From: Mustelus asterias
Lineage: Eukaryota
Assembly (NCBI RefSeq): GCF_964213995.1
Contig: NC_135807.1
Location: 103,478,001 to 103,542,000 of the forward strand
Reading direction: 5' to 3'
DNA length: 64,000 bases
A program made the position numbers and the translations under genes. Positions 13,301-55,300 of this stretch are shown piece after piece. A model generated the notes under the pieces. That model was given only the letters and a program-made list of their open reading frames with translations, did not search any database and was not told the DNA's origin. Position 1 is the stretch's first letter. Each line of letters begins with the position of its first letter.

Positions 13301-16300
13301 TAAAGTCAGAAGTGAGGATGTTCACAGATGATTGCACAATATTCAGTGTCATTTGAGAACTCCTCAGATACTAATGTAGTCTGTGTGCACCTGCAACAAG
13401 ACCTGGACAATGTTCAGGCATGTGCTAAGTGGCAAGTAACACAAGTGCCAGACAATGACCATCTCCCCATGATATTCAATGGCATTACTCTTGCTGAATC
13501 CCCCACTATCAACATCCTGGGGGTTACCACTGAACTAGTCCAGCCATACAAATACTATGGCTGCAGGTCAGAAGTTGGGAACTCTGCAGCGTAACCCACT
13601 TCCTGACTCCCCAAAACCTGTGTACCATCTACAAAGCACAAGTCAGGTGTGCAATGGAATACTCTCCACTCACTTGGATGAGTGCAGCTTTAACAAACTC
13701 AAGAAGCTCGACAACATTCAACATGAAGCAGCATGCTTGTTTTTAACTAATCTAGTGAACCTTCGCTACAGTGCGTCCAATGCAAATATATTCTTAAATA
13801 TGAAGACCAAAGTTGCATGCAGTATCCCACTTTTGGTTACACCAAAGCGCCATACAATTGTAGCAAGATCTCTTTATTCTTGTACTCCAATCCTTAACAT
13901 AGGGCAACATGCTATTTACTTAAATAAAAATAGGAAGTGCTAGAAAAATTCAGCAGGTCTGGGAACATTTGTGGATATGATGAGGAGATGCCAGCGTTGG
14001 ACTGGGGTAAACACAGTAAGAGTTTTAACAACACTAGGTTAAAGTCCAACAGGCTTATTTGGTAGCAAATGCCATTAGCTTTTGGCAAAGGCAGATATCC
14101 ACTCCATCTGACGAAGGAGCAGGGCTCTGAAAGCGAATGGCATTTGCTACCAAATAAACCTGTTGGACTTTAACCTGGCGTTGTTAAAACTCTTACAACA
14201 TTTGTGGAGGCAGAAACAGGTCTAATGTTTCAAGTCTGATATGACTCTTTGGAACCGAGAGGTAGAAATGTAATGGTTTGTACATCATTGAAAAAGAGGA
14301 ACTGGGTGAGGGGAGAGTAAATTCCAAAGATGTCATGGAACAAAAGGAACAGGGAGTGGTTGTAGAAAAGAAACAGGGTTGAACAGTCTGTATGGTTTCC
14401 CCCTGCTTCTATTTTTTATGTGATTTTCTCATGTTAACAGCTAATGATCTTACTCATCCCTGCAAATGCAGTTAATTGGGAAAGGATCCCTTGGCACACA
14501 CGCAGCTCACGGACATTCACTGGCTCAACTACTTGGGTAAGGGACCAGAAATCTAAAAAGGCAGGTGGAATTGCACCCCAGCAAATGTCAGTACCTTCAG
14601 ACAAGGGCAAACTGGAGAGATACCTGATTATTAATTTCTTACTTTGTGATTAGCAGGCATAATATTTTTAGATTCCATGACATATACACAGAATGTGTAT
14701 TGAACTTACTCTGCATTTCGAGCATTTGTAGATCTGTGCCATTTTCTAGTCGATCAGAATCAGTGAGCACATTCTCAATCTTGGAATTCTTCTGTCGTTC
14801 CTCTTCAAATTGCAATTTCAGCTTTCTGATCTACCAAAACCAAGTGGCCAAAGGTTAATAAACTCAAACAACTGAAACACTAGGAGCACATATTTAGAAA
14901 GGTGGAAAATGTTATCCAAGTAAGGCGCTTAACAGTAAAATGTTCCTTATTGAGGGAAGTAAATAGATACACTATCCATGAGCAAAACATTTAAATACTG
15001 AAAGCTCCTCTGGGATTCAGATTCAACATTGATCACACACGAACACAGAACCTCCTTCAATTAGCTGGGAGCATTTTTGCAGTGCAAGACTGATCTTAGT
15101 TTTTCAACACTTCACTTTCCTCTTTCTCTGTCTCTATCCCCAGGCCAAATTATTGGTCTATTTGGTTTAAGATTTATATTTAGAATATACAGACAGCCTT
15201 TATATTCTGTGCCTGCGCACCTCGCTCCATTTCACCTGATGAAGGAGCAGCGCTCCAAAAGCTTGTGATTTCAAATAAACCTGTTGGACTATAACCTGGT
15301 GTCGTATGACCTCTCATTTTATCTATGAGGAGGAGATTTTGAATGAGTGACACGAGTAGGAATGGAATGGTCCGCTGCCAGGATTTGAGGTGTCTGAGAA
15401 AGGCTTGCACTCATGAAAAATGCTTAAATAGCATTTCAGAATGAAAATAATCTACTGGCTATAATCATTTAGGTACAAGAGCAATTTGTTCACTGTCAAA
15501 CAGCTTAGTTATTTCTCCAACAACAACTGGTGCATTTCAAGAAACAAAAGAAAAAAATCACAAATAATTTTTAACTTTGATAAGTCACTACTTCCCACAA
15601 ACCCCATCCCCAGATAATCTTAACCAGGTTAGGGAGATGGGTGGGGGGTGGGGGGGGGGCTTGTGTGTGTGTGTACACAGTGCTAATCACCGAGGTGTGC
15701 TCTAGGGGGCATGGGCTCATCGTCTGTCAATCTGGATGGTCAGTGTCCAAAGCAGCCAATCTGACATGTTATCTCAACTGACGGACTACCCAACCAACAA
15801 TTGCACGGTTCTGAACCACAACAATCACTGGCTGAGTTATCGGTTTGAATCTTAAATGCCCTCTGAAATGGCCTAGCAAGCCAGTCAGTTATAGAAAACC
15901 ACTACAAAGTCCACAAAGAATGGAACTGGCTGGACTACCTGGCATTGCAGGGTCACCAGTTCTGGGTTTGCCATTGTCGTTCCAGTGACCAGGTCAAAGT
16001 CCTTGCACTCACATCTGCGGCTTGTGCCAGAATTTAGAGATCTGTCGCACAGTCAAGCAACAGGCTGACATTGTCATGGTCACAGAATCATACCTTACAG
16101 ACAATGTCCCAGACACCACCATCACTGTCCTTGGGTATGCCCTGTCCCACTGGCAGGACCGACCCACCAGAGCTGGTGGCATGGGAGTATACAATGGTGA
16201 GATGGTTGCCCTGGGAGTGTTGACTCCAGATCTGATCAAGTCTCATCCATCAGATAAAACATGGGCAAGGGGACCTCCTGCTGATTACCACTTACTGGAA

Positions 16301-19300: not shown

Positions 19301-22300
19301 AACCAAGGAATAATAGCTAATATTCCTATATTACGTTTAATTAGACGAAAGAATCCAAGCTCAAGGACTGGACTCCACAAGTACATAAGGAAATGTATTT
19401 TGTACTTTACAACAAAACTACTTTAAACAAAATAATTCTGCACAATAGCCTCAATGGGAAGACCAGCTTTCAATGCCTACTCCTTCTTGCCCTGCAAATG
19501 TTAATGGTGGATCTTTTGCTTGAAGTGCTGCAGGTACTCCTACACTGCTGTTCGGTAGTGACTTCCAGGAATTTTACACAACAAAAATGAAGAATGATAT
19601 ATCTGTTCAGAATGGTACTTTGGCTTGACAGTGTTGAGATTCTTGAGTATTGTTGTAGCTCCAATCCACTGCCCTACTCCCATCGGTGGAGGTGTATTGT
19701 ATTATTCATCCTGTACTTAAATTATATTTGATGATTGTATCTACATATGAATAATACAGCTTTGAGTGATTGATTGCATGCCCAAAATATTTTAGGGTGT
19801 TCTCGAGAAACAGGTCGGATATTACGAATGCAAGAATCTTTGCTCTTTGTTCTTTACGTTGGCGCCAGGAAATGGAATTCTTCCCATTTCAGGTAGGTTG
19901 CATGCACATCAAGCAGGATCAGATCAGATATGGCAAAGCTGAATAAACTTTTTTCTACTCTGTCCCAATCTCAGATTAAGCTAGCATCGCACTTCCTCCC
20001 ACATCATCCATTTCCTAGTTCTGAAATGCAGTGAAAATCTATGCTAAGTTGCGTCTCTAGTTAGTCACAAAGGTCACCAAGAACAAGTCTTCCTTTTGAA
20101 TACCACAAGCTTTTTTTCTGATTGCCTTTTGCTTTCTTCTCATGCAATTACCTGTGCAAGTAATTCTTCCTTTTCATCAGCCAGTTTCTTTAGCCGCACA
20201 TCTGTAATAAGACAAATACATGTAAAAAGATTGCAACTGACAAGGTTTAAAACATTTCTATTATTCAATTCATTATTTGAACAAGCTCAGTTAACAACTT
20301 TTATTTCCTGTGCCAAAAGGAAAATACTGCAGATGCTGGAAACCTGAAATAAAAACAGAAAAAGCTTGAACTACTCAGCAGGTCTGGCAGCATCTGTGGA
20401 GAGAGAAACAGAATGAACAGCGTCCTTAAACTGAAACATCAACTCTGTTTCTCTCTCCACAGATGCTGCCAGACCCAAGTATTTTTAGCATTTTCTGTTT
20501 TACTCCAGATTTCCTGAGTTCCTATGGTTATTCAAATTGTGTATTGGTGGCTTTCCAGCTGCATTTGTGCAAATATTCTGCAGTTGCTCAGAGTTGCAAT
20601 GGTGAATTACAACAGTAACACACCTACGTACCACAGAGGTCCATTCCCAAGCATAATATCTGGCTTTTCAACCAACAGAGAACAGCAATTTTACAATTGT
20701 GCATTCTTGGTGTGGCATCTCTGATTATTGTAACATCACGACAAATCTGAAAATAAAAATCTATGCCTGAGACTGAAAAAGTAATATGTAACTTGGTGTA
20801 TGCAACTTAACTCATTTACACTACATCAGAGGAAACAAGTGCTCAAACTGGGCATTCACAAGATTCTATGGGCCATTAGCAGCAGCAGAATTGTATGCAA
20901 TCACAATCTGTTATCTCATGGTCTGGTATATCCCTCATTGTACCATCACCAACAAATCAGGAGATCAACTCTGGTTCAATGCCGAATACAAAAAAGCCTT
21001 CCAGGACTAGCACCAGAAAAATCTAAATATAATGTGCCAACCCGATGAAGCGAAAACACAGGACCGGATGCATGCCAAACCACAGAAGCAACATGCAACA
21101 GACATGCAAAGCAATCCCACAACAAAGGGATTAAAGCTCAGCAGCTTTACCACAGGCGTTTGTGAATAGTGGTCAACAATTTAACAACTAACCATTGGAA
21201 GAGGTGCCACAAACATCCTCAATGATGGGGCCAATTACCACCCCATCAGTCTACTGTCCCTCATCAATGGCAGGTATCATTGACAGTGATATCAAATGGC
21301 ACTTACTCAGCAATCATCTGCTCACTAATACTCAGATTTGGTTCTGGCAGGGCACATGCTGTTTCAAAAATGAATTCAAGAGGTGAGGGTAACTGTCCTT
21401 GACATCAAGGTAACATCGGACTCAGTGACGCCAAGGAACCACAATTTAATTGAAGTCAATGGGCATCAGGGGAAAAACTCCCTACTGCTGAATTCATACC
21501 GAGAACAAAGGAAGATGGCTGTGGCTGTTGGAGGTCAATCATCTGAGCCTGAGGACATCATTGCAGGAATTCCTCAGGGTAACGTCCTTGGTTCAATTAT
21601 CTTCAGTTGCCTCATCAATGGCCTTCCCTCTATTATAAGGTCAGTCTATTATAAGGTCAGAAGTGGGGATATTGGCTGATGGTTGAACAATGGCTGCCAG
21701 TAGTGGTGGTGGAGGCGGATTCAATAGGATCTTTTAAGAGACTTTTGGATAAGTTCATGGAGGTTAGTAAGATAGAGGGTTATAGGTAAGCCTAGTAGGT
21801 AGGGACATGTTCGGCGCAACTTGTGGGCCGAAGGGCCTGTTTGTGCTGTAGCTTTTCTATGTTCAGCACTATTTGCCACTCCTCAGATACTGAAGCAGTT
21901 TATGTCCATGTGCAGCATGGCCGGGATAATATCCAGCTGCTGGCTGATAAGTGGCAAGTAAGACAAGTGCAAGATAATACTATCTGTAATAAGAGTGAAA
22001 ATAACCAACTCCCCTTGATGTTCAAAGGCATTGCCATCACCGAATCCATACACCAATGTCCTGGGAATTACTATTGACAAGAAATTGAAATGGATGTAAA
22101 TACTGTGGTTACAAGGGCAGGTCAGAGTATCTCACCATCTGACCCTTCAAAGCCTGTCCACCATCTGCAAGGCACAAGTCAGGAGTGTGATGGAATGTTT
22201 ATCGCTTGCAGCTCCAACAATAGTCATGAAGTTTCACACCATCCCCCAAGTCAAAGCGGATGCATGGGAACTCCACCACTTTCAAATTCCCCTGCAAGCC

Positions 22301-25300: not shown

Positions 25301-28300
25301 GTACATTCGACATCCCTTGTATTTACAATGGGTGCCAAGATAACTGTCAATGACATTTTTCTCGCAACTGATGTTAATATTGCTCTCTGGTTCTCATGTT
25401 AGCTTATGACTCAGTTTTGGAACCTTTGCAATACATTCAGCATTTTCTGTTTCCAGCTGGCATTTTTGCCATCATCTGCTGCAACAGCTGGGTTAGTTCA
25501 TTCTTCTCTAGGTTGTCACCAGCATATAGTTCCAGATGATGATTTTCTGATTTGAAAATTCCTTGACACACTACTTTGGATATTCGCAACACAAATTCAT
25601 AGTTCATACAGAATCTCAGCTGAAAATTGTGCAACGCATAGTGCATATGTTGCAATTTGATTCGTCAGGTCACCTCCATCTTAAATGTAAATGATCTTTA
25701 CCTTTAAACAACTGATTTACCTCAGCTCCATTCAGGAGCTGCCAAGGACCTAAATTCTGCAGGATCTGCATCAATAGTTAACCAACCCACTAACCCACTG
25801 AACTGGCATTGGGAGCGAGATGAAACAGAATTCACCCATGTCTGAGAGAGAAATAAAGTATAATGACGTCATGAGGAAAACCATTTTCAAGCAACCAATG
25901 GTTAGAATCTGGAATGCACTGCCCAAGTGTTTGGTGAACCCTGTTTAAATCAAGGCATTGAAAAGGGAATTGGACTATCTGAAAAGGAAGAATGTGCAGG
26001 GATACAGGGAGAAGGTAGGGGACTAGCATGAAGTGACCTAATCCTTCAGATGGCTAGGACATACATGACAGCTGAATGGTCTCCTTTTGTGTTGCATCTC
26101 TTCTATAATTCTAAAATTCACTATAAATCCAGCAGAAAATTTTGTGTGGAATCTCAAATTAAGGAAATGCTAGTTACTTCACAAGATTAAACAAATTGAA
26201 TCGGTATCACATGGAAATCAAGGCCCATTTCTGAGTGGAGGACAACGTTGGTCAGTGGTGCCTTCATTTTCAAATTCTCATTCTTGTTTTCAAGCCTCCC
26301 CTCCCTATTGTTGTAACGTCCCTCAACCAAACAACCCTCTGAAATATTTCCACCTCTAACTCAAGCCCCTTGTGCTTCCTCAATTTTAATTTTTATTCCA
26401 CCATTCATAGCTGTGCTTTCTGCTGCCTAGACGCCAAGCTCTGGAATATCCTCATTATACTTATCTGCCCCTCTACCTCACTTCCTTCAAGAGTCTTCAA
26501 ACACTATTTCTCGGACCAAGTTTTGGGTCTTCTCACCTAATGTCTCTCTGTGGAATGCTGTTATACTTGGTTTTATGAGCTAAAGAGTACTAAGTCCCAG
26601 ATTGATGCATTATCTTTGAAAACTTAGAATCATAGAAACCCTACAGTGCAGAAAGAGGCCATTTGGCCCATCGAGTCTGCACCAACCACAATCCCACCCA
26701 GGCCCTACCCCCATTTACCCGCTAATCCCTCTAACCTAAGCATCTTAGGACACTAAGGGGCAATTTTTAGCTTGGCCAAACAACCTAACCCGCACATCTT
26801 TGGACTGTGGGAGGAAACCAGAACACCCGGAGGAAACCCACAGTCACACGAGGAGAATGTGCAAACTCCCCACAGACAGTGGCCCAAGCCAGGAATCGAA
26901 CCCAGGTCCCTGGAGCTGTGAAGCAGCAGTGCTAACCACTGTGCTACCATGCCACACTTAACTTAAATCGTGAAAACCTAGATAGCACAGCTGTCAAAGG
27001 TAAAATAATGTAGCAGAGAGATCCTGCTTCACCAAAGAGGAGAGAAAATTGAATGGATGGAGTGCTACATGAACATGGTGAGCTAGTTCTGCCTCCAGGT
27101 TATTATATGATCCAACAATGAAAAGCACGCATTGAATGAAAATGTTATGAAGAGTCAGTAAAACAAAGGTGAACATTAATTAGGGAGACAAGCAAAAAAT
27201 TAACACAGCTTTCTATTTTAAATTGAAATGCTAATTTTCTACTTCATTGTTTCACAGAGGTGGTTTTATTCTTCTTTTGCATCTCAGCATTTAAAAAAAC
27301 CCCCCACAGAGTTTCACTGGCTGTCTTGTCTGGAGACAATACACATCTTTTTAGCCTGTCTTGATGCTCTCTCCACTCACATTGTTTTGTTTCTTAAAGA
27401 CTTGATTAGTTGTAAGTATTCGCATTCCAACCATTATTCATGTAAATTGAGGTTGTGTCTTTATATGCTCTGTTTGTGAACAGAATTCCCACTCACCTGA
27501 AGAAGGGGCTTGCAGCTCCGAAAGCTTGTGTGGCTTTTGCTACCAAATAAACCTGTTGGACTTTAACCTGGTGTTGTTAAACTTCTTACTGTGTTTAAAA
27601 AAAACCTCGGAGGTGCATTGGCACACTTGGTGGGACAAGGGTAAACTTGCAGTTTAAATTCAAAGATAGTTCAACAAAAACACAAAGGAAAATGTATTTG
27701 AAAAGGAATTCTCCCACAGTATTCATTAGTTTATATAACAAAATAACCAAACATCTTTTGCCTTCTGCTGCTGAGAAATGGAAGAGACTGGTTTATTACA
27801 CTGAAGTTTACAAATAATAGTTATGCCCACTTTTAAATGTACAAATATTCAATTTTCAGTCACCACACTTTTTATTGCTGCTGATTTTAATCAAAACACC
27901 CCCCCCCAAATCTTCAACACTCTTTAGCCTAAACCACATACATGGCCTACCTTTGTGTTTTCCCTTAGATCAGCCAACTCATCTCTCAGTTCATCACGCT
28001 CATTTCTAATGCAGTCAAAGTAGTCTTTCTGCCTCTCTAGAGCCTGAGCATAGGGCAGCAAGCAGCATAAAGAACATGGCAGAGAAAAGAAAATGTAAAT
28101 TGCAACAAAGGCATGAATATAGCTGATGAGACAGTAGGAAGAGAGAAAGCAATGGGTTGAAGTTTGGAAAAACAAAATCTCATTTTCAACTGTGACTGTT
28201 CAAGATTAACCTCTCCTTCACAGTGAACAACTATTATAATCTGTCACACGCTTTGAGATGCTTGATTAAGCAAATAAACTACAAAGATAATTCTACATCA

Positions 28301-31300
28301 CACATTATATATTGAAGACAAATGGGTAAATTACATTCACTGAGTATACCAAAGATATTTGCAATGAAGCAGTTTGTCTTTTGCTAAAATTCTTTACGCA
28401 GTATATCATGCTCCAACACACTGAATGGTAGACAGGGACATTATGTTCACTAACCAATCAACAAATAACACCCCATGCAGCCACTGCTCAATATGACCTC
28501 CTACCCCAATTTTTTTGTCTTTCCAGTTGACAGTTTCCTGCAGATCAAACACATCCCTGGTGAGAGTGTCCACCCTCTGCTGCAGACACTTGTTCTCCTA
28601 CAGAAAAAGCCACAGGCGAGGAAGCGAAGTTCAGCATTGGTTGGAGCATAAAACAGATTAGGTAGTTAAGAGAAAAAAGTTTTTAAAGGTGTTGAACAAA
28701 ATGAACACACCAGGCCACAATAGTGTATAATTACAAAATAGAGAACTGCAGAAAGATAAATAATGCACATTTTAAAAAGAATTGCAGATTCTGTTAGATG
28801 TCAGTTGGCTTACATTGTACTATATAAAGTTTTCCTCATTTACATAGCCAGGATGTGTTAATGAAGAAGGCAGCTTGTAACATTGCCCAAGCATTTGCAG
28901 TCATTTCCTAAGGATACAAAGACGACACAAAGATAAGTGGAAAAGTGAATCGTGTGGAGGGCGTAGAAGGTCTGCAGAGAGATTTGGACAGGCTGAGTGA
29001 GTAGGCGAGGATCTGGCAGATGGAGTATAACGTTGACAAATGCGAGGTTATTCACTTTGGAGGAAATAATAGCAAATTGGATTATTATCTAAATGGAAAA
29101 AAATTACAACATGCTACTGTGCAAAGGGACCTGGGGGTCCTTGTGCATGAGACGCAAAAGCCCAGTCTGCAGGTGCAACAGGTGATTAAGAAGGCAAATG
29201 GGATGTTGGCCTATATCGCAAGGGGGATAGAATATAAAAGCAGAGATGTCTTGTTGCATCTGTACAGGGCATTGGTGAGGCCGCAGCTGGAATACTGTGT
29301 GCCGTATTGGTCCCCTTATTTGCGGAAGGATATATTGGCATTGGAGGGAGTGCAGAGAAGGTTCACCAGGTTGATACCAGAGATGAGGGGTGTTGGTTAT
29401 GAGGAGAGACTGAGCAGATTGGGTTTGTACTCGTTGGAATTTAGAAGGCTGAGGGGGTATCTTATAGAGACCTATAAGATTATAGGTGGATAGGGTAGAG
29501 GTGGAGAGATTCTTTCCACTTTGTAAGGAAACTAGAACTAGAGGGCACAGCCTCAAAATAAAGGGGGGTCAGTTTAGGACAGAGTTGAGGAGGAACTTCT
29601 TCTCTCAGAGGGTGGTGAATCTCTGGAATTCTCTGCCCACTGAAGTGGTGGAGGCTACCTCGTTGAATATGTTTAAATCACGGATAGATGGATTCCTGAT
29701 CAGTAAGGGAATTAGGGGTTATAGGGATCAGGCGGGTAAGTGGAACTGATCCACTTCAGATCAGCCATGATCTTATTGAATGGCGGGGCAGGCTCGAGGG
29801 GCTAGATGGCCTACTCCTGCTCCTATTTCTTATGTTCTTATGTTTTTATGATACAAATCAGCAGGTTGCTGAAACAGGATGCAAGTATAGATTATAGACA
29901 TAAATGATGCACAAGTGACTTGCAGCAGCCACTTTTAAACCTATTGAAAATGCAGCTAATTCGGTGCAATAATCTGATAATACATAAACACAAAACTTAC
30001 CCAATTTTTCTTAACTATTAGTCAGTTTCGTTTATTTATTAGTGTCACAAGTAGGCTTTCACTGCAATGAAGTTACTGTGAAAATCCCCTAGTTGCAACA
30101 CTCCAGCACCTGTTTGGGTACACATAGGGAGAATTTAACATGGTCAATTCATCTAACCAGTACGTCTTTTGGACTGTGGGAGGAAACTGGAGCACCCGAA
30201 GGAAACCCACACAGATACAGGAAGAACATGCAGACTCCGCACAGTCACCAAACTGGGAATCAAACCCGGGTCTCTGGCGCTGTGAGACAGCAGTGCTAAC
30301 CATTGTGCCACTGAGAGAATAGCTGCAGCAGATTCTTCATGTCCTGAGAAGATTTATAAACAAACTTTCAGGTGTGCCTGAATGACATTTTTATTTTTCT
30401 CAATTGTTAAAGGTGACAGCAGCTAAAGTACTAAAAGAAAAATTCAGACCATTCTACAATTAGGGATTACTATAATTGTGTATATATTTATTGTTGAACA
30501 CAAAATAAATATGCTGAAATCCATTTATTTGTTTCTGTTCATATGAAAAACCCAGTTCATTTGTTGACATTATGTAGTGAACATACTATTGAGATCTTAT
30601 CATCCATATTAATCCAATTTTTTACTAAACTATTGCAAAACTATTTGATCATAAAATACTTGATCATATGATGATAAAACTCCAAAGATATAGGTTGAAA
30701 TCTTAGTTTCTGAAATACATAGCACCCCAAAATATTCAACTCATTGGTTACATAGATTCAAAACTAAGAAATTCTCAAGGCAGTTACCAATGAATTTTTA
30801 GCAGCAATCTCCAAATTGACAATAACAAGACAAGAACCTTTGATATGAACACAGGCCTTCTTCACCCTCCACCTACCTCTATTAGTTTGTCTCTTTGCAG
30901 AATACCCTCTTTTAGTTCTTCTACTTTATGTTGTGACACACTACACATATGTTTTTGACGTTCCAGTTCCTGAAAAATACCAAATAGTAATTTTTTCAAA
31001 ACTAACTTACAATTTGTTACAGCAGTTGATCCATGATTTCTTTGAAGGCACCATCACATTTTTTTCTGATATATCACTGATTAGATCATGGTATAACAAG
31101 TAGCACTGTGGGCTCGTCTGCTATTCTTTCAACTCTGGGACTTGATTTAAAGATGTGGAGATGCCGGCGTTGGACTGGGGTAAACACAGTAAGAGTTTTA
31201 ACAACACCAGGTTAATGGCATTTGCTACCAAATAAACCTGTTGGGCTTTAACCTGGTGTTGTTAAAACTCTTATTGATTTAAATGCAGCACGTGCACATA

Positions 31301-40300: not shown

Positions 40301-43300
40301 GGGGGAAGCTTGAAACCTGAACATTAGCTCCTCTGGGACAATAAAGGGTTTCCATGCTCACACAGGGAGAGTCCAAGCTGGGCTGTCAGTGAGAATTCTG
40401 CAGCACCATCTTCCAGCCCGCAGCAATGGCATAGTACAAACTTAAAATGAAGAAAAGCACTGCTGGTGAGGGCTCTGCAGGCAGATTGTAGGGCATGTGC
40501 ATACACTGGGAGGTGGGATTAAAGGAACACCCAACTGTACTCTGCATTCCCAAATGAGAAAGGCAAAGCTGAAACATGTTAGGAGCCTTTCAATGACATT
40601 GAAGGTAATCAGAAAGTGAAGTAATGATGCCCTTTCACGCGACACTAATCTTGCAAAGGGGCACTGACCAATCCCCTTGTTTAAACCCTTGTTCACGGTA
40701 TGGCAATTCCCCAGAGTCATAACAAACTCCAGAGCAATTAGGCAACAGGACAAGCTTCAAAAGCTCATTAGAAAATTGGAGCCGGACGGTTCGCAGGTCC
40801 CCCTCAAATAACCTAGTATCCTGGTGAAACATTTACCCTCATGTTTATTCCAAAGAACATAGTATTAGAGTACAGTGATTAAGGATCCCAGTACCTGGGC
40901 TAAGAGCAGTACATTCATGTGCCTGACCAGAGCAATGTCACAGCAGTCAGTCATGTTGGGCTTAGCAGTTGAGGGTGGAGGTGACCTTGCTATGCACCCT
41001 GCGTTCACCATCATTTCAGGGCAAGTACTTTTCAATTAAGAAACAAATTCCTTGAATCCATATTCACTGATGAGTTATTGACAAAAAGAGGACTTTTAGA
41101 GACTCATGATGACTCTTGTCTGTTTCTCACTGATACTGCAGAGAGGAAACCATGAGGAAGAAGAAGTCTGGCTTTATCGCTCCCTGCATTATCACTTAGA
41201 TGTGGAAATGCTGGCGTTGGACTGGGGTAAACACAGTCAGTTTTAACAACACCAGGTTAAAGTCCAACAGGTTTATTTGGTAGCAAATGCCATTAGCTTT
41301 CGGAGCGCTGCTCCTTCATCAGATGGAGTGGATATCTGCTCTCAAACAGGGCATACAGAGACACAAAATCAAGTTACAAAATACTGATTAAAATGCAAAT
41401 CTCTACAGCCAACCAGGTCTTAAAGATACAGTCTGCATCTTTAAGACCTGGTCGGTTGTAGAGATTCGCATTCTAATCAGTATTCTGTAACTTGATTTTG
41501 TGTCTCTGTATGCCCTGTTTGAGAGCAGATATCCACTCCATCTGATGAAGGAGCAGCGCTCCGAAAGCTAATGCATTTGCTATAAAATAAACGTGTTGGA
41601 CTTTAACCTGGTGTTGTTAAAACTCTTACTGTTATCACTTAGAGGCAGGAGAGAAGATGATTGCAACAGGGCTGCTTGGTTCACCAAAGAGAGGAGCAAA
41701 ATCCTCAAGACCAAGGCCCTCTCCAGACATAATGTCTCTGAGAGCTTCATCTTTTATGTGTGGGCAGCTCCAAGTCCCAGGGTGTACAGAACTTGCACGT
41801 CTTACCTGCAGATGAGCAACAACCAGTGTCACTGACATCTTCACATGTCCAGGGATTTGGTGACTCACATGTACCATATTCTCTTGGAATTGGCGCCATG
41901 GGAACAGGGAGAGAAGCTATTGCTAGTGGCTGTGAAAGTAACTTAGAATCATAGAATCCCTACAGTGCAGAAGGAGGCCATTTGGCCCATTGAGCCTGCA
42001 CTGACCACAATCCCACTTAGGCCTGATCCCCGTAACCCCACCTATTTACCCTGACACTAAGGGGCAATTTATCATAGCCAATCAACCTAACCTGCACATC
42101 TTTGGAGTGTGGGGGGAAACCGGACACCCAGAGGAAACTCACACAGACACAGGGAGAACGTGCAAACTTCCTTTTTGCAAAACTTTTTTTGCCATGGCCC
42201 AAAACTCCACCAACATAAACAGTGACCTAAGGCTGGAATTGAACCTGGGTCCCTGGCGCTGTGATGCAGCAGTGTTAACCGCTGTGCCACCATGCAGCCC
42301 AGCTCCAACTTCCACATTGAACTGCTATGTGTCCTTCTAGAGCTCTATTGGGGGACCTCTGAGGGATCTCTTAAGCATCCACTCACAAATGCATTGGCAG
42401 CACAGTGGTTAGCATTGTTGCCTCATTCAGTCAGGGACCCAGGTTCAGTTCCGGCCTCGGGTGACTGCTTGTGTGGAGTTTGCATGTTGTCCCTGTGTCT
42501 GCATGGGTTTCTTCTGAGTGCTCTGGTTTCTTCCCACAGTCCAAAGATGTGTGAGTTAGGTGGATTGGCCACGGGAGATTGCCCCTTAGTGTCGCGGGAT
42601 GAGCAGAGTAAACACATGGGATTATGGGGATAAGGCCTCGGTGGGATTGTTGTTGATGCAGACTCGATGGGCTGAATGGCCTCCTTCTGCACTATAGGGA
42701 TTCTATGATTCTAAGTCACAGACACCTTTTTTGCCATGGCCCAAAATTCCACGAATAGAGATCAAGCAAGCCAGGATGCCAGAGCACTGGGATTTGTTGA
42801 GATTTTCAGATTCCCACAGGTGCAGGGTGTATGTGGCCATAAAGCTCCTAAACAACAAGCATTCCAACACATGAACTGGAAAGACTACCACTCACACGTT
42901 GCACAGCTAGTCTGAGGCCATTAAAAAAAAAACTTTGCCAGGCAGGTCTGCTCTAGATACTCAAAGCATCCATGATGCATGCATCCCAGATCCTGGATAT
43001 CTTCAAGGGACCACACGGGCCAGGGCTGGTTCCTCATTGACAAAGGGTACCCGCAAAGGATGTGGCTGATGATGCCTGTGCAACAGCATCAGACTCCTGC
43101 ACGGAGAAGGTATAATGAGGCTCATGCCTTACCCAGACTTGGGTGCAGCACACCATAGGTATCCTAAAGTGCTGATTCCAATGCCTGGATAGATCTGGTG
43201 AGGCTTCATTACAGTCCCGAGAGGGCTTCATGGATCATCGTGGCTGTTGCAATAATGAGATGGAGGAGCTGCATGTCTCCACCAATGTGGAGGACCTCGA

Positions 43301-46300
43301 AGAGGAGAAGGGCGGTGAGTTTGACAAAGCAGAGGCTGCAAGGGAAGAGGTCATAGCACTGACCAGCCTGCTGCTGCTTCCTTCGTAAAATCCAAAAACA
43401 GGACTGCCTTGGCAGACCGATTGTAGAAGCCTGTTCCTGCCCCACTGAACTAATTTCTTCTCATCCCAACACCATTCTCTCTCCCATGCACAGTCCCTTC
43501 CCAACCACATTCGTGATTCCTTTATTATGGATATCCCTCCATACCCCACCAGGAAGGACTGAATGCTCTCTGTTTCTTGCTTAAACAGAGGCTCGAACAA
43601 TCCCCGTCCACCATTACTTTCCTCTGCCTCGCTGAACATGTTCTTGTACACAACAATTTCCCCTTTAACTTGCCTCACTTCCTGCAAATAAAGCATGTGG
43701 CTACGGGAACCTGTATGGGCTCCAGTTATGCCTGTCTTTTTGTAGGGCATGTGAAACATCCCTTGTTCCAGTCCGACTCAGGCCCTCTCCCACAACTCTC
43801 TTCCTGTTACATTGATGACTATATTGGTGCCGCTTCATGCTATCATTTGGACCTGGAAAAACTTAGCGATTTTGCTTCCAATTTCCACCCTTCTTTCAGA
43901 TTCCCAAGGTCAGTCTCCCACACTTTCCTTCCCTTCCTTGACTTCTGTTGCGATTTCTGACCTCCAATATTTATTACAAACCCACTGACTGCCACAGCTA
44001 CCTCTTCACACCCTGCTTCCTGCAAGGACCCTAATCCATTCCCCCAATTTCTTCACCTCCGTCTCATTTGTTTTGATGATGCCACCTTTGAAAACAGCAC
44101 TGCTGACACATCTGCTTTTTTTCTCAACCGAGGTTTCCCTGTTGCAGTGATTAACAGGGCATTCAACCGTGTCCGACCTATTGCCTGCACCTCTGCCCTT
44201 CAATCCTTTCTTCTCCCACCCCATCCCAGAATCATGATAGGGTCCCTATTGTCCTCACTTTCCACCCCATCAGCCTCCACATTCAAAGGATCATCCTCTG
44301 CTTTTTTCATCAACTCCAGCATGATGCCACCACAAAACACATCTTCTCCTAATCGCTATCAGTATTCCGCAGGGACCATTCCCTCCGTGACACACTGGTC
44401 CACTCCTCCATTGCCCCAACCCGCCATCCCCTTCCCACAGCAACTTCCCATGCAAACACAGAAGTTGCAACACCTGCCCCTTTACCTCTACCTTCTTCAC
44501 TGTCCAAGACCCCAACATACGTTTCAGGTGAAGCAGCATTTCACATGCACCTCCTTCAATTTGGTCTACAGTATTCGCTGCTTCCAATGCAGTCTCCTCT
44601 ATATTGGGGAGACTACTTTGTGGAACACCTTTGCTCAGTCCACAAGCATGACTTCAATCAGGCCAAGCTCAAGAGCATCCTACCAAGATACAACCAACAC
44701 ATCTCCTGTTCCACCAGAGGCCCAAGCATTCTAGACCACTGCTACACAAATATCAAATATGCCTACCGCTCGATCGCCCACTCACACTTTTGCAAATCAG
44801 GGCACAAGGCTGTAGCTCCTGCTCCCAGCTGACAAGCAAAAAACTGAAATGGGAGAATCCGTCAAAGAAAATCATGCAATGGTGGTCTGAGGAATCGAAT
44901 GATCTCTTACGGGACTGCTTAGAGTCAGTAGACTGGTCAGTATTTAAAAACTCTGACCAGCCTGAATGAGTACACCACGACTGTAACTTCATTAGTAAGT
45001 GTGTTGGAGACTGTGCGCCGAAGAAGCAAATCCACGTGCTTCCCAACTGGAAAATTTGGATGAACAGGGATAACCACTGCTTGCTCAAGTCTAGGTCTGA
45101 GGCGTTCAAGTCAGGCAACCCTAACCTATACAAGCAAGTAGTAAGAAGTCTCACAACACCAGGTTAAAGTCCAACAGGTTTATTTGGTAGCAAATACCAT
45201 AAGCTTTCCACTCCATCTGATGAAGGAGCAGCGCATTTCCACTCCATCTGACGAAGGAGCAGCGCTCCGAAAGCTTATGGTATTTGCTACCAAATAAACC
45301 TGTTGGACTTTAACCTGGTGTTGTGAGACTTCTTACTGTGTTCACCCCAGTCCAACGCCGGCAACTCCACATCATGGCTATACAAGAAAGCCAGATATGA
45401 TCTAAGGAGATCCATTAAAGATGCCAAAAGACTGTACTGGACCAAGCTAGAGTCCCAGGCTAGCCACACAGGCCCCCGCTGACTATGGGAAGGTCTGCAA
45501 GACATAACAGGTACAAGATGAAGGCATGAAAAATCACCAGCACAAACTCACCCTTCCCTGATCTCAGTGCATTTTATGCCCGTTTTGAGACAGAAGTCAG
45601 CGAGAGCTCGGAAACCTCAGATGAACCTGTACCCGAGATCACCATTGCAGATGTCATCGCAACCTTCTCAAAGGTCAATCCATGGAAAGCGACTGACCGG
45701 GATGGGGTACCCGGACGAGCACTCAGATCCTGCACGGACCAGCTGGTGGGGTATTTGCAGACATCTTGAACCTCTCTTGACAACAATCTGAGGTTCCTAT
45801 CTGCTACAAGATGATGACCATCATCCTGGTTCCAAAGAAAGGCCAAGCAGCATGCCTTAATGACCATCATCCGGTGACTCTGACATTCATTATGAAGTGC
45901 TTCGAAAGGTTAGTCACGGCACAAATCAATTCCGACCTCCCAGATTGCTTGGATACACTATAATTTGCCCACCGCCACAACAGGTCCACAGCAGACGCCA
46001 TCTCCCTGGCCCTGCACTCAACCCTAGAACACCTAGATAACAAAGTCACCTATGTCAGACTTCTACTTATCGACTATATCTCAGCCTTCAACACTATTAT
46101 TCCCACGAAACTCTTCTCCAAACTCCATGGCCTGGGGCTTGGCTCCTCCCTCTGCAACTGGATTCTGAACTTCCTAACGCAGACCGCAATCAGTGAGGAT
46201 AGGCAACAACACCATCTCCACAATCATCCTCAACACCAGTGCCTGCAAGTCTGTATCCACAGTCCCTTACGATATCTCTTAGACACCTATGACTGTGGCC

Positions 46301-49300: not shown

Positions 49301-52300
49301 TCAGTTGTGCTTTCACTGAGCATTGACCTTTGTTCTCCTATTAACACATTCTCTTTTAAAAACATTTTTATGCCACTATCAGCACTTTCTTTTTGTCGTA
49401 AATGCTACCATTAACACTCCCTTTGTCTTGTGTCCATGACATCTTTGTCAATCTCTCATTTCCAACCTGTCCCTGATTTTCTATTCTGCTCTATCTTTGC
49501 CACCCCGTTCTCCAATTACATAATCCATTTCTACCCCTCTTTAGTTTTGGTTTAGTTTCAACTGTTAACTCTGCTTCTCGCTCCACAGGTGCTGCCAAAC
49601 CCGCTGAGTTTATCCAGCATTTTCTGTTTTTATTCAATTTGCCTTCCGAATTACTTGCTGTAGCTGCATGCTAACTTTGTGATGTGATTCATATACAAGG
49701 TCACCCAGATTCCTCTCTTCTGCAATATTCTGTTTCATTTAAATAATATTCTGCTTTTCTACTTTTCTATTCTTACCAAAGTGGACAACATGTTCCAACA
49801 AGAGACAAAACATATGTGACCTCACCCTCCTGCCTGCCGCAGATGCATCTGTCTATGACAGTATTGGTAGGAGTGACCACTGCACAGTCCCTGTGGAGAC
49901 AAAGTCCCATCTTCACATTAAGGATACTTTACATTGTGCTGTGTGGCACTATCATTGTGCAAAATGGGATAGACTTCAAACAAATCAAGCAGCTCAAAAC
50001 TGGGCATGTATGAGGCACTGTGGGCCATCAGCAGCAGTAGAGTTGTGCTCAACCACCATCTGTAACCCCATGGTCCAGCATATCACTACTTCACCATTAC
50101 CACCAAGCAAGGAGATCAACACTGGTTCAATGAGTTCAGGAGGGCATGCCACAGGTAAACCTAAAAATGAGGTGTCAACCTCGTGAAGTTACAACACAGG
50201 ACTACCTGCATACCAAACAGCAAAAAATGCAAGTGATAGAGATAATTGATCCCACAACCAAGCGACCAGATCTACTTTTTATGAAATAATGGATTCCGGC
50301 ATTTTTCCTATGTCAGACTACTGCCCCATAATCATCTACTTTGTCTTCTTTCTTTCTTAAATAGGGATGTTACATGCGAAGTTTTCCAACGGCGGGGATC
50401 GTCCCAGAATCTAGGGAATTTTGAAGATTACAACCACTCCATCCAGTATCTGTGCACTCACTTCCTGTGGCCTCAGATGCAGGCCATCAGGTCCAAGGGA
50501 CTTGACAGTCTTTAGCCCCATTAGTTTTCCGAGTACTTTTTCTCCAGTGATAATTTTAAGGTCCACTCCACCCTTAGTCACTTGATTATCTGCTATTCTT
50601 GGGATACTTTTGTTTTATCTACTGTGAAGCCAGATGCAAAATACTGTTCAATCCTGTCATTTTCGTGTTTCCCCTTATTAATTCCCAGCCTCTGCCTCTA
50701 AGGGACCAATATTTACTTGAAGTACTTTTTTTTCATATACTTTTACAAATTCTTCCTCCCTGTCTTAATGTTTCTTGCTAGTCCATTCTCATATTCGAAT
50801 TTCTCCCTTGATGGTATTCTAAATTTTTATACTATCTCTTGCTAAAATGTTCTCTATCTACTAACTGAGGAATCGTTTATCATTCTCAATACATAAAATG
50901 TCCTTTCATTTGTGACTTTGAAGAAAGTTCTGGATGGTTTGGAAATCTGATTGAAGAAATTCAAATATGGATTTCTGGGGAAGAAGGGCATAGATTTGGG
51001 AGATGACAACTTTGAAGTAGAGGGAAGTTATTGAGAGCATCGTAGTTTGCAAGGACAGAGGCACATAAATAATGGCACCAAAGAAGCTCCAAAGTTATAT
51101 GCTTAATCCAGACCCTCGAACTGGAGCTTATTAGCACAGCATCCATTTAGCTTCTGTTTTTACTGATATGATACTCAAAATGCTTCACCACAAGCAGACA
51201 TTGAACAGAAAGCATATTATTTAAAAGAAGTTGGGTAAATATTTGTAAAGGATGAAAATGAAAGGATTTAGGCAAAGGGCAAGGGAATGGAATTAAAGTA
51301 AACACCTTCAATTAAAGGCCTAACCCAGCACAAGAATAATGATTGATTGGACCAGCTATGAAAGATACAGCTGACAAGACTGCTGTCTTATCTGAAAGAG
51401 ATGAATATATGCTCAGCATAGATTCCAACAAAATGGATTTTTGGTAACAAAAGATTGCGGTTCCTTCTTAGAGTGTGGACAATGTTGGCAAAGCTGTAAC
51501 TATTGCCCGAAGATGTACAGTTTTTACAACTGAGGTTTTGTCAGGCTAATTTGGAGAGTGAACTGTGAGCCCTACATTGTGTGAATTGAATTAATACATG
51601 CTAGAAAGTACATTTTCTTTCCTGAAGACACACTCTGATTTTCTGATGCTTTTCACAGCCAATTTCAATACTCAACTTCTGAGACTTGAACATCTAATGT
51701 TTGTCTCCAGACTTGACTATTCCATGCATTCCTGCCTGGCTACCTACATCCTACTCTCCATAAACTTGAGGTCATCTGAAACTCTGCAGCCCTGTCCTCA
51801 TTTGCATAAGGTCTCCTAGACAAATGGCTGATTCACATTGGCTCCCATTTAGGCAAGGCCGCAAATTAATAATTTTCATCATCGTTTCTAAATCCCTCCA
51901 TGGTCTTACTCTCCCTATCTCTAATCTCCTCCAGCCACTAGGTCCAATATCTAACGTCATCTAATTCTGGCAAAATTTTAATTTATTCGTTCACAAGATT
52001 GGTGCATGTCGCTGGCTAGGCTTTTGCTCATCACTAATTGGCCTCAAGGAGATCATGGTGAGTTGCCTTCCAGAACCACTGCAGCCAATGTGCTTCAGGT
52101 ACAACCACAGTCCTGTTAAGAAGGACGTTACAGGATTTGTATCCACCAACAGTGAAGGATGACAATATAGTTCCAAGATGGTTTGTCTTAGAGGGGCACT
52201 CACCTGATGAAGGAGCAGCGCTCCGAAAGCTCGTGCTACCAAATAAACCTGTTGGACTTTAACCTGGTGTTGTGAAACTTATTACTGTGCCTACCCAATT

Positions 52301-55300
52301 CCAATGCCAGCATCTCCACATCATGTCTTCGAGAGGAACCGCAGGGAGTAATCCCATGCATCTGCTGCCCTCGCCCTTCTAGGTGTCAGAGGCCTCATGT
52401 TTAAAAAGTGCTTTGAAGGACCGTTAGAGAGTTCAGCAGTGCATTTTGCATATAATGCTGCCATTGTGCATTGTTGGCAGAGGGAATTAATGTTTAAGGT
52501 GCTGGATGGGTGCCAACCAAGTGGGCTGCTTTGCCGTGTATGGTGTCGAGTTTCTTGAGTGTTGCTGGAGCTGCGCTCATCCAGGCAAGTGGAGAGTATT
52601 CCATCGCACTCCTGACTTGTGCCTTGCAGATATTTGACAAGCTTCGGGGAGTTACTTACAGCAGAATTCCCAACCTCTGACCTGCTCTCATAGGTGCAGT
52701 ATTTATACAGCCGATGAGTTCAGTTTCTGGTCAATGACGACCCCCAGTATGTTGATTGTGGCGGATTCAGTGATGGCAATTCCATTTAATGTCAAGGGGT
52801 AATGGCTAGATTCTCTCTCATTGGAGATGGTCATTGATTCCCAGTGGTGCAATGCAAATGTTACTTGCCACTTCTTAGCCCAAGCCTGAATATTGTCTAG
52901 GTCTTGCTGCATTTGGACACGGACTGCATCAGTGTCTGACGAGTCAGGAGTGGTGCTGAACATTGTGCAATCATGAGTGAACATGCCTACTTCTGACCTT
53001 TTGTTGGAAGGAAGATCATTGATGAAGCAGCTGAAAATGACTGGGCTGAAGATCCGAACACCTGCAGCGATGCTCTGGGACTGAGATGAATGACCTTCAA
53101 TGACTACAACCACCTTCCTTTGAGACAGTGATGACACCAACCCATCGGGGATGCCTCCATCCAAAAAATTTCCATTGTTTTGTTCGGACTCCTGGATGTC
53201 ACACTTGCCTTAATGTCAAAGGCAGACACACTCATTTCACCTCGAGTTCAGCTCTTTGTCCATATTTGAACCAAGGCTATAATGAGATCAGGAGCTGAGT
53301 GGCCCTGGCAGAATCCAAACTGAGCAGCAGTGAGTAAGTTACTGCTGAGTAAGTGCAGCTTCATGATACTGTTGATGACATCTTCCATCACTGATAATCG
53401 AGAGTAGACTGATGGGGTGGTAATTGGCTGGGTTGGATTTGTCCTGCTTTTTGTGGACAAGACATACCTGGGAAATTTTCCACATTTCTGGGTAAATGCC
53501 AGTGTTCTAACTGCACCGGAAGAGTTTAGTTAGGGGTGCAGCAAGTTCTGGAGCATAAGTCTTCAATACTGTTGCCAGAATGTTGTCAGTCCCAAAGGCT
53601 TTGCAGTATCCAGTGCCTTCAGCTGTTCCTTGATATCATGCGAAGTGAATTGAATTAGCTTAAGACTGGGATCTATGATGCTGAGGATGTCAATAAGCTG
53701 CCAAGCATTTGAGATTTTTATTTGCTCCACTGTTGCTGGTGTACCTTGAACTGCCTGGGGCCAGAATGCTGGAAATCCTTCCCAAAAACTTACTTTCTTC
53801 CTTCAAGATGTTCCTTAAAGATTACCCCTCTAACCAAGCTTTTGGATAGCTGCCTTAAAATTGCAATAAGAAGTCTCACAACACCAGGTTAAAGTCCAAC
53901 AGGTTTATTTGGTAGCAAATACCATAAACTTTCGGAGCAATGCTCCTTCGTCAGATGGAGTGGTCTCTGTTCTCAAACAGGGCACAGACACAGAAATCAA
54001 ATTACAGAATACTGATTAGAATGCAAATCTCTACAGCCAGCCAGGTCTTAAACGTACAGACAATGTGGGTGGAGGGAGCATTCAACACAGGTTAAAGAGA
54101 TGTGTATTGTCTCCAGACAGTACAGCTTGTGAAATTGTGCAAGTCCAGGAGGCAAGCTGTGGGGGTTACTGATAATGTGACATAAATCCAACATCCCGGT
54201 TTAGACCGTCCTCATGTGTGCGGAACTTGGCTATCAGTTTCTGCCCAGTGACTCTGCGCTGTCATGTGTCGTGAAGGCCGCCTTGGAGAACGCTTACCTG
54301 AAGATCCAAGGCTGAATGCCCGTGACTGCTGAAGTGCTCCCCCACAGGAAGAGAACAGTCTTGCCTGGTGATTGTCGAGCGGTGTTCATTCATCTGTTGT
54401 TGTAGCGTCTGCATGGTTTCCCCAATGTACCATGCCTCGGGACATCCTTTCTTGCAGCGTATCAGGTAGACAACGTTGGCCGAGTTGCAAGAGTAGGTAC
54501 CGTGTACCTGGTAAGTGGTGTTCTCATGTGAGATGATGGCATCCGTGTTGATGATCCGGCACGTCTTGCAGAGGTTGCTGTGGCAGGGTTGTGTGGTGTC
54601 GTGGTCACTCCACATCATTAAAATTGCAACACATGGCTTTGTGCCAGATTTGTTTCATAATGCTGCTGAATAATGTCTTGGGACATGCTGTTAAAGGGGC
54701 TGCACAATTATAATTTGATGTTGTAATACTGAGGGAATGCTGCACTGAGGTACTGTATTTTGGTGACATTAAACCTGATTAACTTTGCTTTCAGACAGGT
54801 GTAAATGATTCTATGAGGCAAGCAATTCCACTTGGATATCCACATTGCACAACAGTTAGCATCGCTGCCTCATGCGCCAAGGACCTTTGGTTCGGGTCCC
54901 GGCTTGGGTCATTGTCTGTGCGGAATCTGCACGTTCTCCCTGCATAGAACCATAGAAAATTACAGCTCAGAAACAGGCCTTTTGGCCCTTCTTGTCTGTG
55001 CCGAACCATTTTTTGCCTAGTCCCACTGACCTGCACTTGGACCATATACCTCCACACCCCTCTCATCCATGAACCCGTCCAAGTTTTTCTTAAATGTTAA
55101 AAGTGACCCCGCATTTACCACTTTATCCGGCAGCTCATTCCACACTCCCACCACTCTCTGCGTGAAGAAGCCCCCCCTAATATTCCCTTTAAACTTTTCT
55201 CCTTTCACCCTTAACCCATGCCCTCTGGTTGTTTTCTCCCCTAGCCTCAGCGAAAAAAGCCTGCTTGCATTCACTCTATCTATACCCATCAAAATCTTAT

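Follow-up and report, generated by a model that had tools for sequence, protein, structure and literature searches.

The 64,000-nucleotide stretch analysed here (the window) contains several hammerhead ribozyme motifs, and this raises the question of which element carries them and whether their cleavage determines the ends of that element's RNA. A preliminary description had assigned them to a recently active Penelope-like element (PLE) family of a shark, with RNA ends made by self-cleavage. Our analysis supports the first part of this description, and leads to a different view of what cleavage would do.

Hammerhead cores in the window and in the genome

Seven hammerhead cores and one mutated core are present where they had been described; the earlier numbers refer to the stem I flank, while the coordinates used here give the position of C3. 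The seven cores are located at 14108 (+), 27497 (+), 41322 (-), 41542 (+), 45248 (+), 52204 (+) and 53954 (-). The mutated core, in which G12 is replaced by A, is located at 15236 (+), and a partial duplicate of a core is found at 45217 (+). A family-free hammerhead descriptor gave six matches in the window versus none in 200 dinucleotide shuffles. The core CUGANGA plus GAAA-N-N-U-H was passed by six of the eight window cores, 14108 and 15236 being mutated; core 14108 has lost U16.1 (U16.1>G), and core 53954 has AGUU in place of AGCU. Genome-wide, at least 68,013 exact cores were found, which corresponds to about one per 54 kb, and the reversed pattern was absent. A chance origin of the motifs is ruled out by the shuffles together with the absence of the reversed pattern. 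Rfam hammerhead models had been proposed as a check, but no hammerhead family is among the 16 matches in the window at E<=5, probably because stem III is missing. The other matches, of miRNA type on inverted repeats plus one lncRNA, are all under the gathering score.

We analyzed the fold in 182 family copies, chosen by the core boxes and a downstream anchor and partly by the stem II pattern. Pair I.1 is kept in 175 copies and pair II.3 in 181 (A-U in 133, G-U in 22 and G-C in 26). Position 10.1-11.1 is G-C in 168/182 and G-U in 13/182, in a sample that was partly chosen by this stem. The AGCU palindrome (15.2-16.2, without stem III) is present in 169 copies, the extra nucleotide after A9 is A in 180, and H17 is G in a single copy. 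The flanks switch between cat..atg and cac..gtg and the stem II loops vary, as had been claimed, except that core 27497 is better drawn with a 6-bp stem II and a 3-nt loop. The switch in stem I is real, but the covariation seen in the window amounts to one pair (U-A versus C-G) that tracks the subfamily, and it therefore counts as a single event rather than seven; two sites that are diagnostic of subfamilies covary through descent in any case. Within the family, compensatory changes are limited to I.1 (UA/CG) and II.3 (AU/GU/GC). When a second family was added, 8 of 11 pairs were compensatory, with a score, inflated by relatedness and by letters fixed in the pattern, of 0.669 versus 0.281 for shuffled alignments. 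For most copies the hammerhead is not the minimum-energy fold, and the energy comparison favoured neither the hammerhead nor the dimer fold over alternative folds.

A Neptune/Nematis-type element and its insertions

The motifs belong to the minimal type I hammerheads and lie in the pLTRs of a Neptune/Nematis-type PLE. At two loci, L061 and L062, which are partial tandems with two hammerheads, ORFs of 892 aa encoding RT plus GIY-YIG sit between hammerhead-bearing repeats, so that the ATG follows one hammerhead at a distance of 98 nt and a second hammerhead comes after the ORF. The 892-aa ORF matches RVT_1 (E 5e-10) and contains YIDD at 533 and VVY..YIG at 791; the EN itself was not called in the Pfam search of this ORF, and many of its homologues carry PF01541. 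A motif C-x4-C-x2-C, beginning at residue 752, precedes the EN, and a CX2-5CxxC linker is part of the Neptune/Nematis definition (PMC8557442, accessible text). The assignment to a PLE family with minimal type I hammerheads and an AGCU palindrome is supported, and this class was indeed already known (PMC4209133, accessible text). Recent activity is upheld by the open ORFs and by a median DNA identity of 98.2% over 59 EN-3'UTR matches, taken among loci picked for likeness, and a shark host by the best named homologues, which are from sharks at 80-93%.

Of 196 inverted (head-to-head) pairs, 187 combine a tailed end with a short one, and a target duplication of 7-15 bp (mode 12, mostly 10-13 bp) flanks 158 of these 187. 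The 3' ends of the inserts lie at +60 and +97 past the predicted cut, one in each arm of a head-to-head pair, and therefore they are not made by cleavage. Moreover, most copies read through the hammerhead, and 5' ends that match the cut are found in a minority of copies only, clearly in one subfamily. The claim that self-cleavage makes the RNA ends is thus not supported in the form in which it was put.

In the window, the seven motifs correspond to six insertions instead of seven copies, because 41322 and 41542 are the two arms of one. The inverted insertion at 13977..14196 consists of a - arm (13977-14085) ending in a tail and a + arm (14091-14196) with a short end; it has a 12-bp target duplication and holds the damaged hammerhead 14108 (H17 at 14136). 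The mutated core, predicted to be dead, belongs to an older C-type pLTR stub (15227..15318, +), and the intact hammerhead 27497 (H17 at 27527, 6-bp stem II) to a D-type 3'UTR/pLTR stub (27312..27597, +). An inverted stub without a hammerhead, absent from the preliminary description, is located at 31152..31276; it has a 9-bp target duplication, and its + arm begins between -2 and +2 from the predicted cut, the range being due to junction microhomology. The single inverted insertion at 41198..41632 carries the two outward-facing hammerheads, one arm being tailed and the other short, and has a 10-bp target duplication. The inverted insertion at 45140..45380 lies within a LINE fragment and contains the intact hammerhead 45248 (H17 at 45276), the partial duplicate and a 9-bp target duplication. 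At 52197..52328 (+), a C-type tailed stub begins just 5' of stem I, and its hammerhead, 52204, has a 3-bp stem I. Finally, the 5'-truncated copy at 53864..54609 (-), which is 97.9% identical to a full-length copy, comprises a linker Zn-finger and GIY-YIG fragment (54609-54169), the 3'UTR, hammerhead 53954 and a short end. The described link to a GIY-YIG ORF needs qualification: of frame 54262-54654 (-), only the part up to 54609 derives from the element, the RT is missing, and the stop at 54262 comes early in comparison with intact copies. Pfam returned no family for this frame, so its GIY-YIG identity rests on its 96-97% identity to the EN of the full ORFs.

An LRRFIP-family exon is also present among the window motifs. 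That the motifs form a domesticated regulatory set for this host gene, as the position of the exon might suggest, is barely credible, given that they occur in both orientations, that several cores are broken and that the genome is filled with such cores at the density given above.

Copy ends at the predicted cut

Each footprint sample consisted of the 100 matches listed first, on C1-C2. Exclusion letters in the truncation patterns drop some junction types, including a 5-nt microhomology join at -7. The first truncation pattern, in which 62 of 100 matches were the intact subfamily, served for a rough count only, and an early mixed-subfamily sample is suggestive only. Among the subfamily D matches listed, 100 arms are truncated within -7..+1, and 63 of them begin exactly at +1, where 12.5 would be expected; counted by insertion, the figure is 59/94. 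A two-sided D sample gave 8 arms over -7..-1, 29 at +1, and then 15, 17, 6, 4, 8 and 13; without microhomology, the counts at +1, +2 and +3 were 17, 15 and 16. The D signal is therefore a cliff with a shoulder, dropping slowly past +1, an effect due in part to a sister subfamily whose cut lies at D+3. Where one arm starts at +1, the partner arm never passes the cut (0/51) and begins at +1/+2 in 19 cases; where the first arm starts at -2..-7, the partner passes the cut in 3/22 (p=0.025). Of the 89 arms that could be classified, 47 were assigned by eye to a separate cluster of 5' ends, 4-7 nt before C3 and some 35-38 nt upstream of the cut, which looks like the RNA start. The footprint is weaker in subfamily A, with 69 of 100 arms, by eye and among the matches listed, within -2..+1 versus 37.5 expected, and is blurred there by an H17 that may be A or U. 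It is absent in C2, where no clear pile was seen (3/30 at +1); in a second C2 sample, the count by eye was about 13 of 56 true truncations, with internal deletions or mutants as the remainder.

Because short copies pile exactly at the predicted cut, we consider it probable that the hammerheads of this very high-copy family, in subfamily D, cut part of the element RNA in vivo. We also favour, somewhat less firmly, the reading that the genome holds a fossil record of Penelope minimal-hammerhead cleavage in vivo, in which the scissile bond would be the starting point of D stubs numbering on the order of thousands, with neither arm of an insertion crossing this edge and with subfamilies ranking D > A > C2.

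It is rather unlikely that the +1 pile marks instead a second site of transcription initiation, or an RNA end produced by a protein, with a hammerhead that rarely cuts. Many transcription start sites are a purine after a pyrimidine, as is +1. A G stands immediately before +1 in 24 of the 63 D arms (by eye, among the matches listed), but many of these G are templated by the partner arm, and they do not demonstrate a cap-derived extra G. PLE repeats also contain internal promoters (PMC2377424, accessible text). However, a start-like cluster already exists upstream, the edge coincides with the exact predicted phosphodiester, and of the 100 A-type arms listed only 4 have a G in front. RT stalling or microhomology-guided joining of the arms, for which no RNA end is needed, is improbable. 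Junctions do recur (9 arms with a common 1-nt and 4 with a 2-nt microhomology), and the predicted structures include a hairpin immediately 3' of the cut in D; yet +1 is the start in 50/84 arms without detected microhomology and in 12/20 direct joins, among the D matches listed, and no pile was seen at the base of stem II, which is the stronger structure (2 at -9 and 0 at -8, by eye).

For partial cleavage, we propose the following course. As in vitro for the anole element, the RT-EN protein would nick both target strands and prime at two sites, and the cDNAs would be extended to the RNA 5' end and then joined. Uncut RNA would give long copies, or stubs beginning just before stem I, the likely transcription start. 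RNA cut by way of an AGCU/AGCU dimer helix, probably aided by protein, would result in hammerhead-less stubs at +1 on both arms. Since priming takes place downstream of the cut, cut and unligated RNA would yield dead stubs only, and cleavage would thus not define the ends of mobile copies. Alternatively, as in the model of Cervera and De la Pena, cleavage could be obligatory, a double cut and re-ligation producing a circular unit-length template and the +1 stubs being unligated by-products. Copies that span the cut and continue for 60-97 nt would have the same sequence if derived from a circle, and the partial tandems at L061 and L062 would also fit. We regard this as unlikely, since the stubs that begin immediately before stem I imply linear templates that had not been cut, insertion in vitro still takes place with catalytic mutants (PMC11167929, accessible text), and C2 has spread without a footprint.

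If partial cleavage is true, ribozyme activity could be read from genomes and related to changes in the stems, and cleavage would be a brake or switch, removing a capped leader, rather than a step defining element ends. Genomic ends that pile at the cut with nucleotide precision would be indirect evidence of cleavage in vivo, and natural subfamilies with a strong, weak and no footprint are a ready series for assay.

Comparison with known systems

Neither the motif nor the family type is unusual in itself; the fresh point is the 5' ends at the cut, not the hammerhead class. Topic searches of the literature found no paper reporting such a footprint. The published systems are compared here according to the accessible text of each source. 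The metazoan PLE hammerheads surveyed by Cervera and De la Pena (2014, PMC4209133) share with those described here the type I core, the extra nucleotide between 9 and 10.1, G10.1-C11.1, a short stem I, the palindromic 15.2-16.2 without stem III, and an occurrence mostly as single dispersed copies, with pairs on opposite strands. That text names no shark among the hosts, and reports about 4,000 copies in coelacanth and 9,000 in Xenopus tropicalis, numbers far below the exact cores counted here but obtained by different search methods. It states that in vivo evidence is absent and that in vitro activity is low.

Hammerheads are near-universal in canonical PLEs, but what they do there is described as unclear (Craig et al. 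2021, PMC8557442). The Neptune/Nematis EN+ PLEs of that study have in common with the shark element a single RT plus GIY-YIG ORF, the DKG motif, the CX2-5CxxC linker, a CCHH-type EN, partial tandems, an inverted 5'-truncated copy and a one-sided tail of 30-40 bp; unlike in those elements, no microsatellite targeting was seen in the shark insertion flanks. Non-LTR retrozymes (bioRxiv 10.64898/2026.07.22.740005) are likewise hammerhead-bearing and PLE-derived, and have been reported in one chondrichthyan. They are tandem non-coding repeats, whereas the window copies come from the ends of a coding PLE, are truncated or inverted, and are dispersed rather than arranged as head-to-tail units; this identity was therefore rejected.

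PAc, the Poseidon element of Anolis carolinensis (Frangieh et al. 2024, PMC11167929), also has two internal RT start sites that bound the tail, nicks on both strands and a hammerhead upstream of the priming sites, and its cleavage is dispensable in vitro. The PAc hammerhead overlaps the start codon and its tail is inside the ORF, whereas in the shark element the cut precedes the ATG by 98 nt, with the tail ending at the ATG. No RNA-seq reads ended at the cut of PAc, the only such element that has been reconstituted in vitro, whereas genomic 5' ends of the shark element pile there. As with the HDV-like ribozyme of R2 (PMC3774820), a genomic 5' junction falls at the site of the ribozyme cut. However, the Drosophila R2 cut defines the full-length element, while the shark cut would mark only dead stubs.

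Hammerhead cores and the element that carries them

The seven hammerhead cores of the preliminary description and its mutated eighth were all found in the window; damaged cores lie at 14108 (named by C3; U16.1 absent) and 15236 (G12>A), and a variant at 53954 has AGUU instead of AGCU. A descriptor lacking family-specific letters (stem I of at least 3 bp, stem II of at least 4 bp, GAAA-NN-U-H) gave six matches in the window versus none in 200 dinucleotide shuffles, and an Rfam scan of the window matched no hammerhead model at E<=5. The observation is real, correctly classed and of an already known kind, and the features of the main family agree with the minimal hammerhead ribozyme (min-HHR) consensus as presented in the part of PMC4209133 covered.

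Covariation of stem I had also been proposed. In 182 family copies, picked via core boxes and a downstream anchor and partly selected on stem II letters, the stems pair well, yet double changes are limited to pairs I.1 (U-A 95, C-G 75) and II.3 (A-U 133, G-U 22, G-C 26). Each switch tracks subfamily and may represent one event; the claim holds for I.1, and within stem I for that pair alone. The genome also contains another hammerhead family, with 2,497 exact matches, in which ACGU replaces the AGCU of the main family and the stems differ. When 38 rows hand-chosen from 124 distinct variants of both families were aligned, both sides changed in 8 of 11 pairs; the covariation score of 0.669 (shuffled control 0.281; slid control no higher than 0.167) is inflated by relatedness and pattern-fixed letters, stem I of the second family being free of the pattern.

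The window motifs are embedded in short repeats with a common downstream block. Four head-to-head insertions are present, each with a 9-12 bp target duplication; one without a hammerhead (31152-31276) has a + arm that begins at the predicted cut, inside 3-nt microhomology. The insertion at 13977-14196 sits inside a decayed end of the second family, whose intact copies carry the ACGU palindrome and whose other decayed ends lie at 10294-10455, 20344-20500 and 49560-49640 (the interrupted one being 13919-13975 with 14197-14260). A degenerate RT + GIY-YIG region of a different, older Penelope-like element (PLE) at 43517-44560 (+; 27.6% identity to the main ORF, residues 444-672) is truncated by a LINE that in turn houses the 45140-45380 insertion. 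CR1-type LINE fragments encoding APE and RT domains (35083-36006, 47099-48926, 55017-57964 (-)), three tandem 118-nt units (37161-37514, 95-99% identity) and many SINE-like repeats occur elsewhere. An LRRFIP-family exon (PF09738, E 7e-29) lies at about 33169-33339 on the minus strand, and the window repeats, in both orientations, are probably intronic to such a gene. To the left of the window (L294:3743-4886), short frames resemble, by eye, decayed retroviral integrase/envelope pieces.

Genome-wide (3.68 Gb), the 3-nt-loop core has 68,013 matches versus 0 for a reversed control pattern, and subfamily D2 adds roughly 12,600 copies (extrapolated from 62 of the first 100 among 20,382 matches). 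A first-look search with the window's GIY-YIG fragment gave 67,104 candidates; identity to it is 96-100% among the 150 that were scored, two of which lie inside 912-codon open frames. The window copy (53864-54609), 5'-truncated and with an early stop, is 97.9% identical to L062, a locus with an 892-aa RT+GIY-YIG ORF between hammerhead-bearing repeats. The closest named homologues are shark proteins (80-93% identity). The assignment to a Penelope-like family was borne out: the definitions taken from PMC8557442, rather than a tree, place the element among the C-terminal EN+ PLEs of Neptune/Nematis type. In L296-L299, D2 shares ~95% DNA identity with subfamily A in the ORF and only ~78% in the 3'UTR/terminal repeat, with a sharp shift at the stop codon; the D2 terminal repeat was likely swapped, judging by these sequences.

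Insert ends relative to the predicted cut

Measured from the predicted cut, 'short' ends lie 60 nt downstream and 'tail' ends 97 nt downstream, the latter adjoining ATG; therefore, contrary to the proposal that self-cleavage makes the RNA ends, it does not make the insert 3' ends. Among 196 inverted pairs in extracted loci, 187 combine one short and one tail end, 6 have two short and 3 two tail ends, some of these nine being mis-paired neighbours; 158 of the 187 have a 7-15 bp target duplication (mode 12). Several insertions share one site in a CR1-like LINE sequence, and other flanks recur too (L033, L056, L060, L061, L065, L232, L287); flank bases mirror the RNA letters just beyond each priming site. 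The pattern suggests that target choice is guided by short homology.

For 5' ends, arms truncated near the cut were retrieved by excluding family letters at -10..-8, +1 being the first nucleotide after the cut. This filter retained 1,515 subfamily D arms, of which the first 100 start at +1 (63), -1 (11), -2 (7) and -3 to -7 (5, 3, 1, 4 and 6). The +1 starts amount to 59/94 counted by insertion, 50/84 without detected junction microhomology and 12/20 in direct joins; if a fraction of about 0.28 passes the filter, the class would comprise roughly 3,400 copies. A two-sided D sample (n=100) had 8 arms across -7..-1, 29 at +1 and 15, 17, 6, 4, 8 and 13 at +2 to +7, where a sister subfamily cutting at D+3 is mixed in. 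Because of this admixture and the near-equal starts at +1, +2 and +3 without microhomology (17, 15, 16), what can be stated firmly is that the counts form a cliff at the scissile bond.

Of the 51 +1 arms with an inverted partner, none had a partner reaching beyond the cut (19 partners started at +1 or +2), versus 3 of 22 arms starting at -2..-7 (p=0.025), a contrast that is only modest because arm lengths correlate regardless. In subfamily A, 69/100 starts fall within -2..+1 versus 37.5 expected (read by eye), and 21/30, two of them mutants, in a scripted check; in C2, 3/30 are at +1 (script) and internal deletions predominate. Junctions in L108, L124, L139, L258 and other loci show short tandem restarts of the first post-cut bases, as if the RT had run off the template end and re-primed.

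Transcription start and role of cleavage

The +1 pile could instead mark the transcription start. A search for D-type arms whose start lies up to 18 nt upstream of C3 gave 4,669 matches; after excluding 11 of the first 100 (9 of another subfamily, 2 indels), 89 were classified by eye, with 47 starting 4-7 nt before C3 and 16 folding back at a local palindrome. Most partners of 30 upstream-starting arms checked by script likewise run beyond the cut. The cluster 4-7 nt before C3 coincides with an initiator-like sequence; an extra cap-derived G was not established for it. This cluster is the likelier candidate start, which leaves +1 as a separate, second 5' end.

The sequences establish the anatomy of the element, its two 3' ends and the two piles of 5' ends. 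Its RNA would start just upstream of stem I; its protein would nick both target strands, priming at +60 and +97, and the cDNAs would extend to the RNA end and then join head to head. A fraction of the RNAs may have been cleaved by hammerheads dimerised through AGCU pairing, probably with the protein assisting as in PAc, the in vitro-reconstituted Poseidon PLE of Anolis carolinensis. With priming downstream of the cut, cut RNA would yield dead stubs only, barring re-ligation, so that cleavage is likelier a brake, switch or side reaction than the step defining element ends; re-ligated cut RNA may alternatively serve as a circular template. By predicted folding energies, the active fold is not favoured in most copies, in accord with the low in vitro min-HHR activity reported in the parts of PMC4209133 and the review PMC6765202 covered.

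Comparison with known systems

Earlier publications already describe the hammerhead motif, where it sits and how the element inserts; this shark family may be a new member. In the literature searched we found no report that PLE hammerhead cleavage leaves a footprint in genomes, and the interest of the finding rests on this testable footprint. PLE tail architecture is likewise known, and the short and tail ends fit the two internal RT start sites demonstrated in the anole element, as described in the portion of PMC11167929 covered. For a ribozyme cut coinciding with a 5' junction, R2 provides a precedent (PMC3774820, in part).
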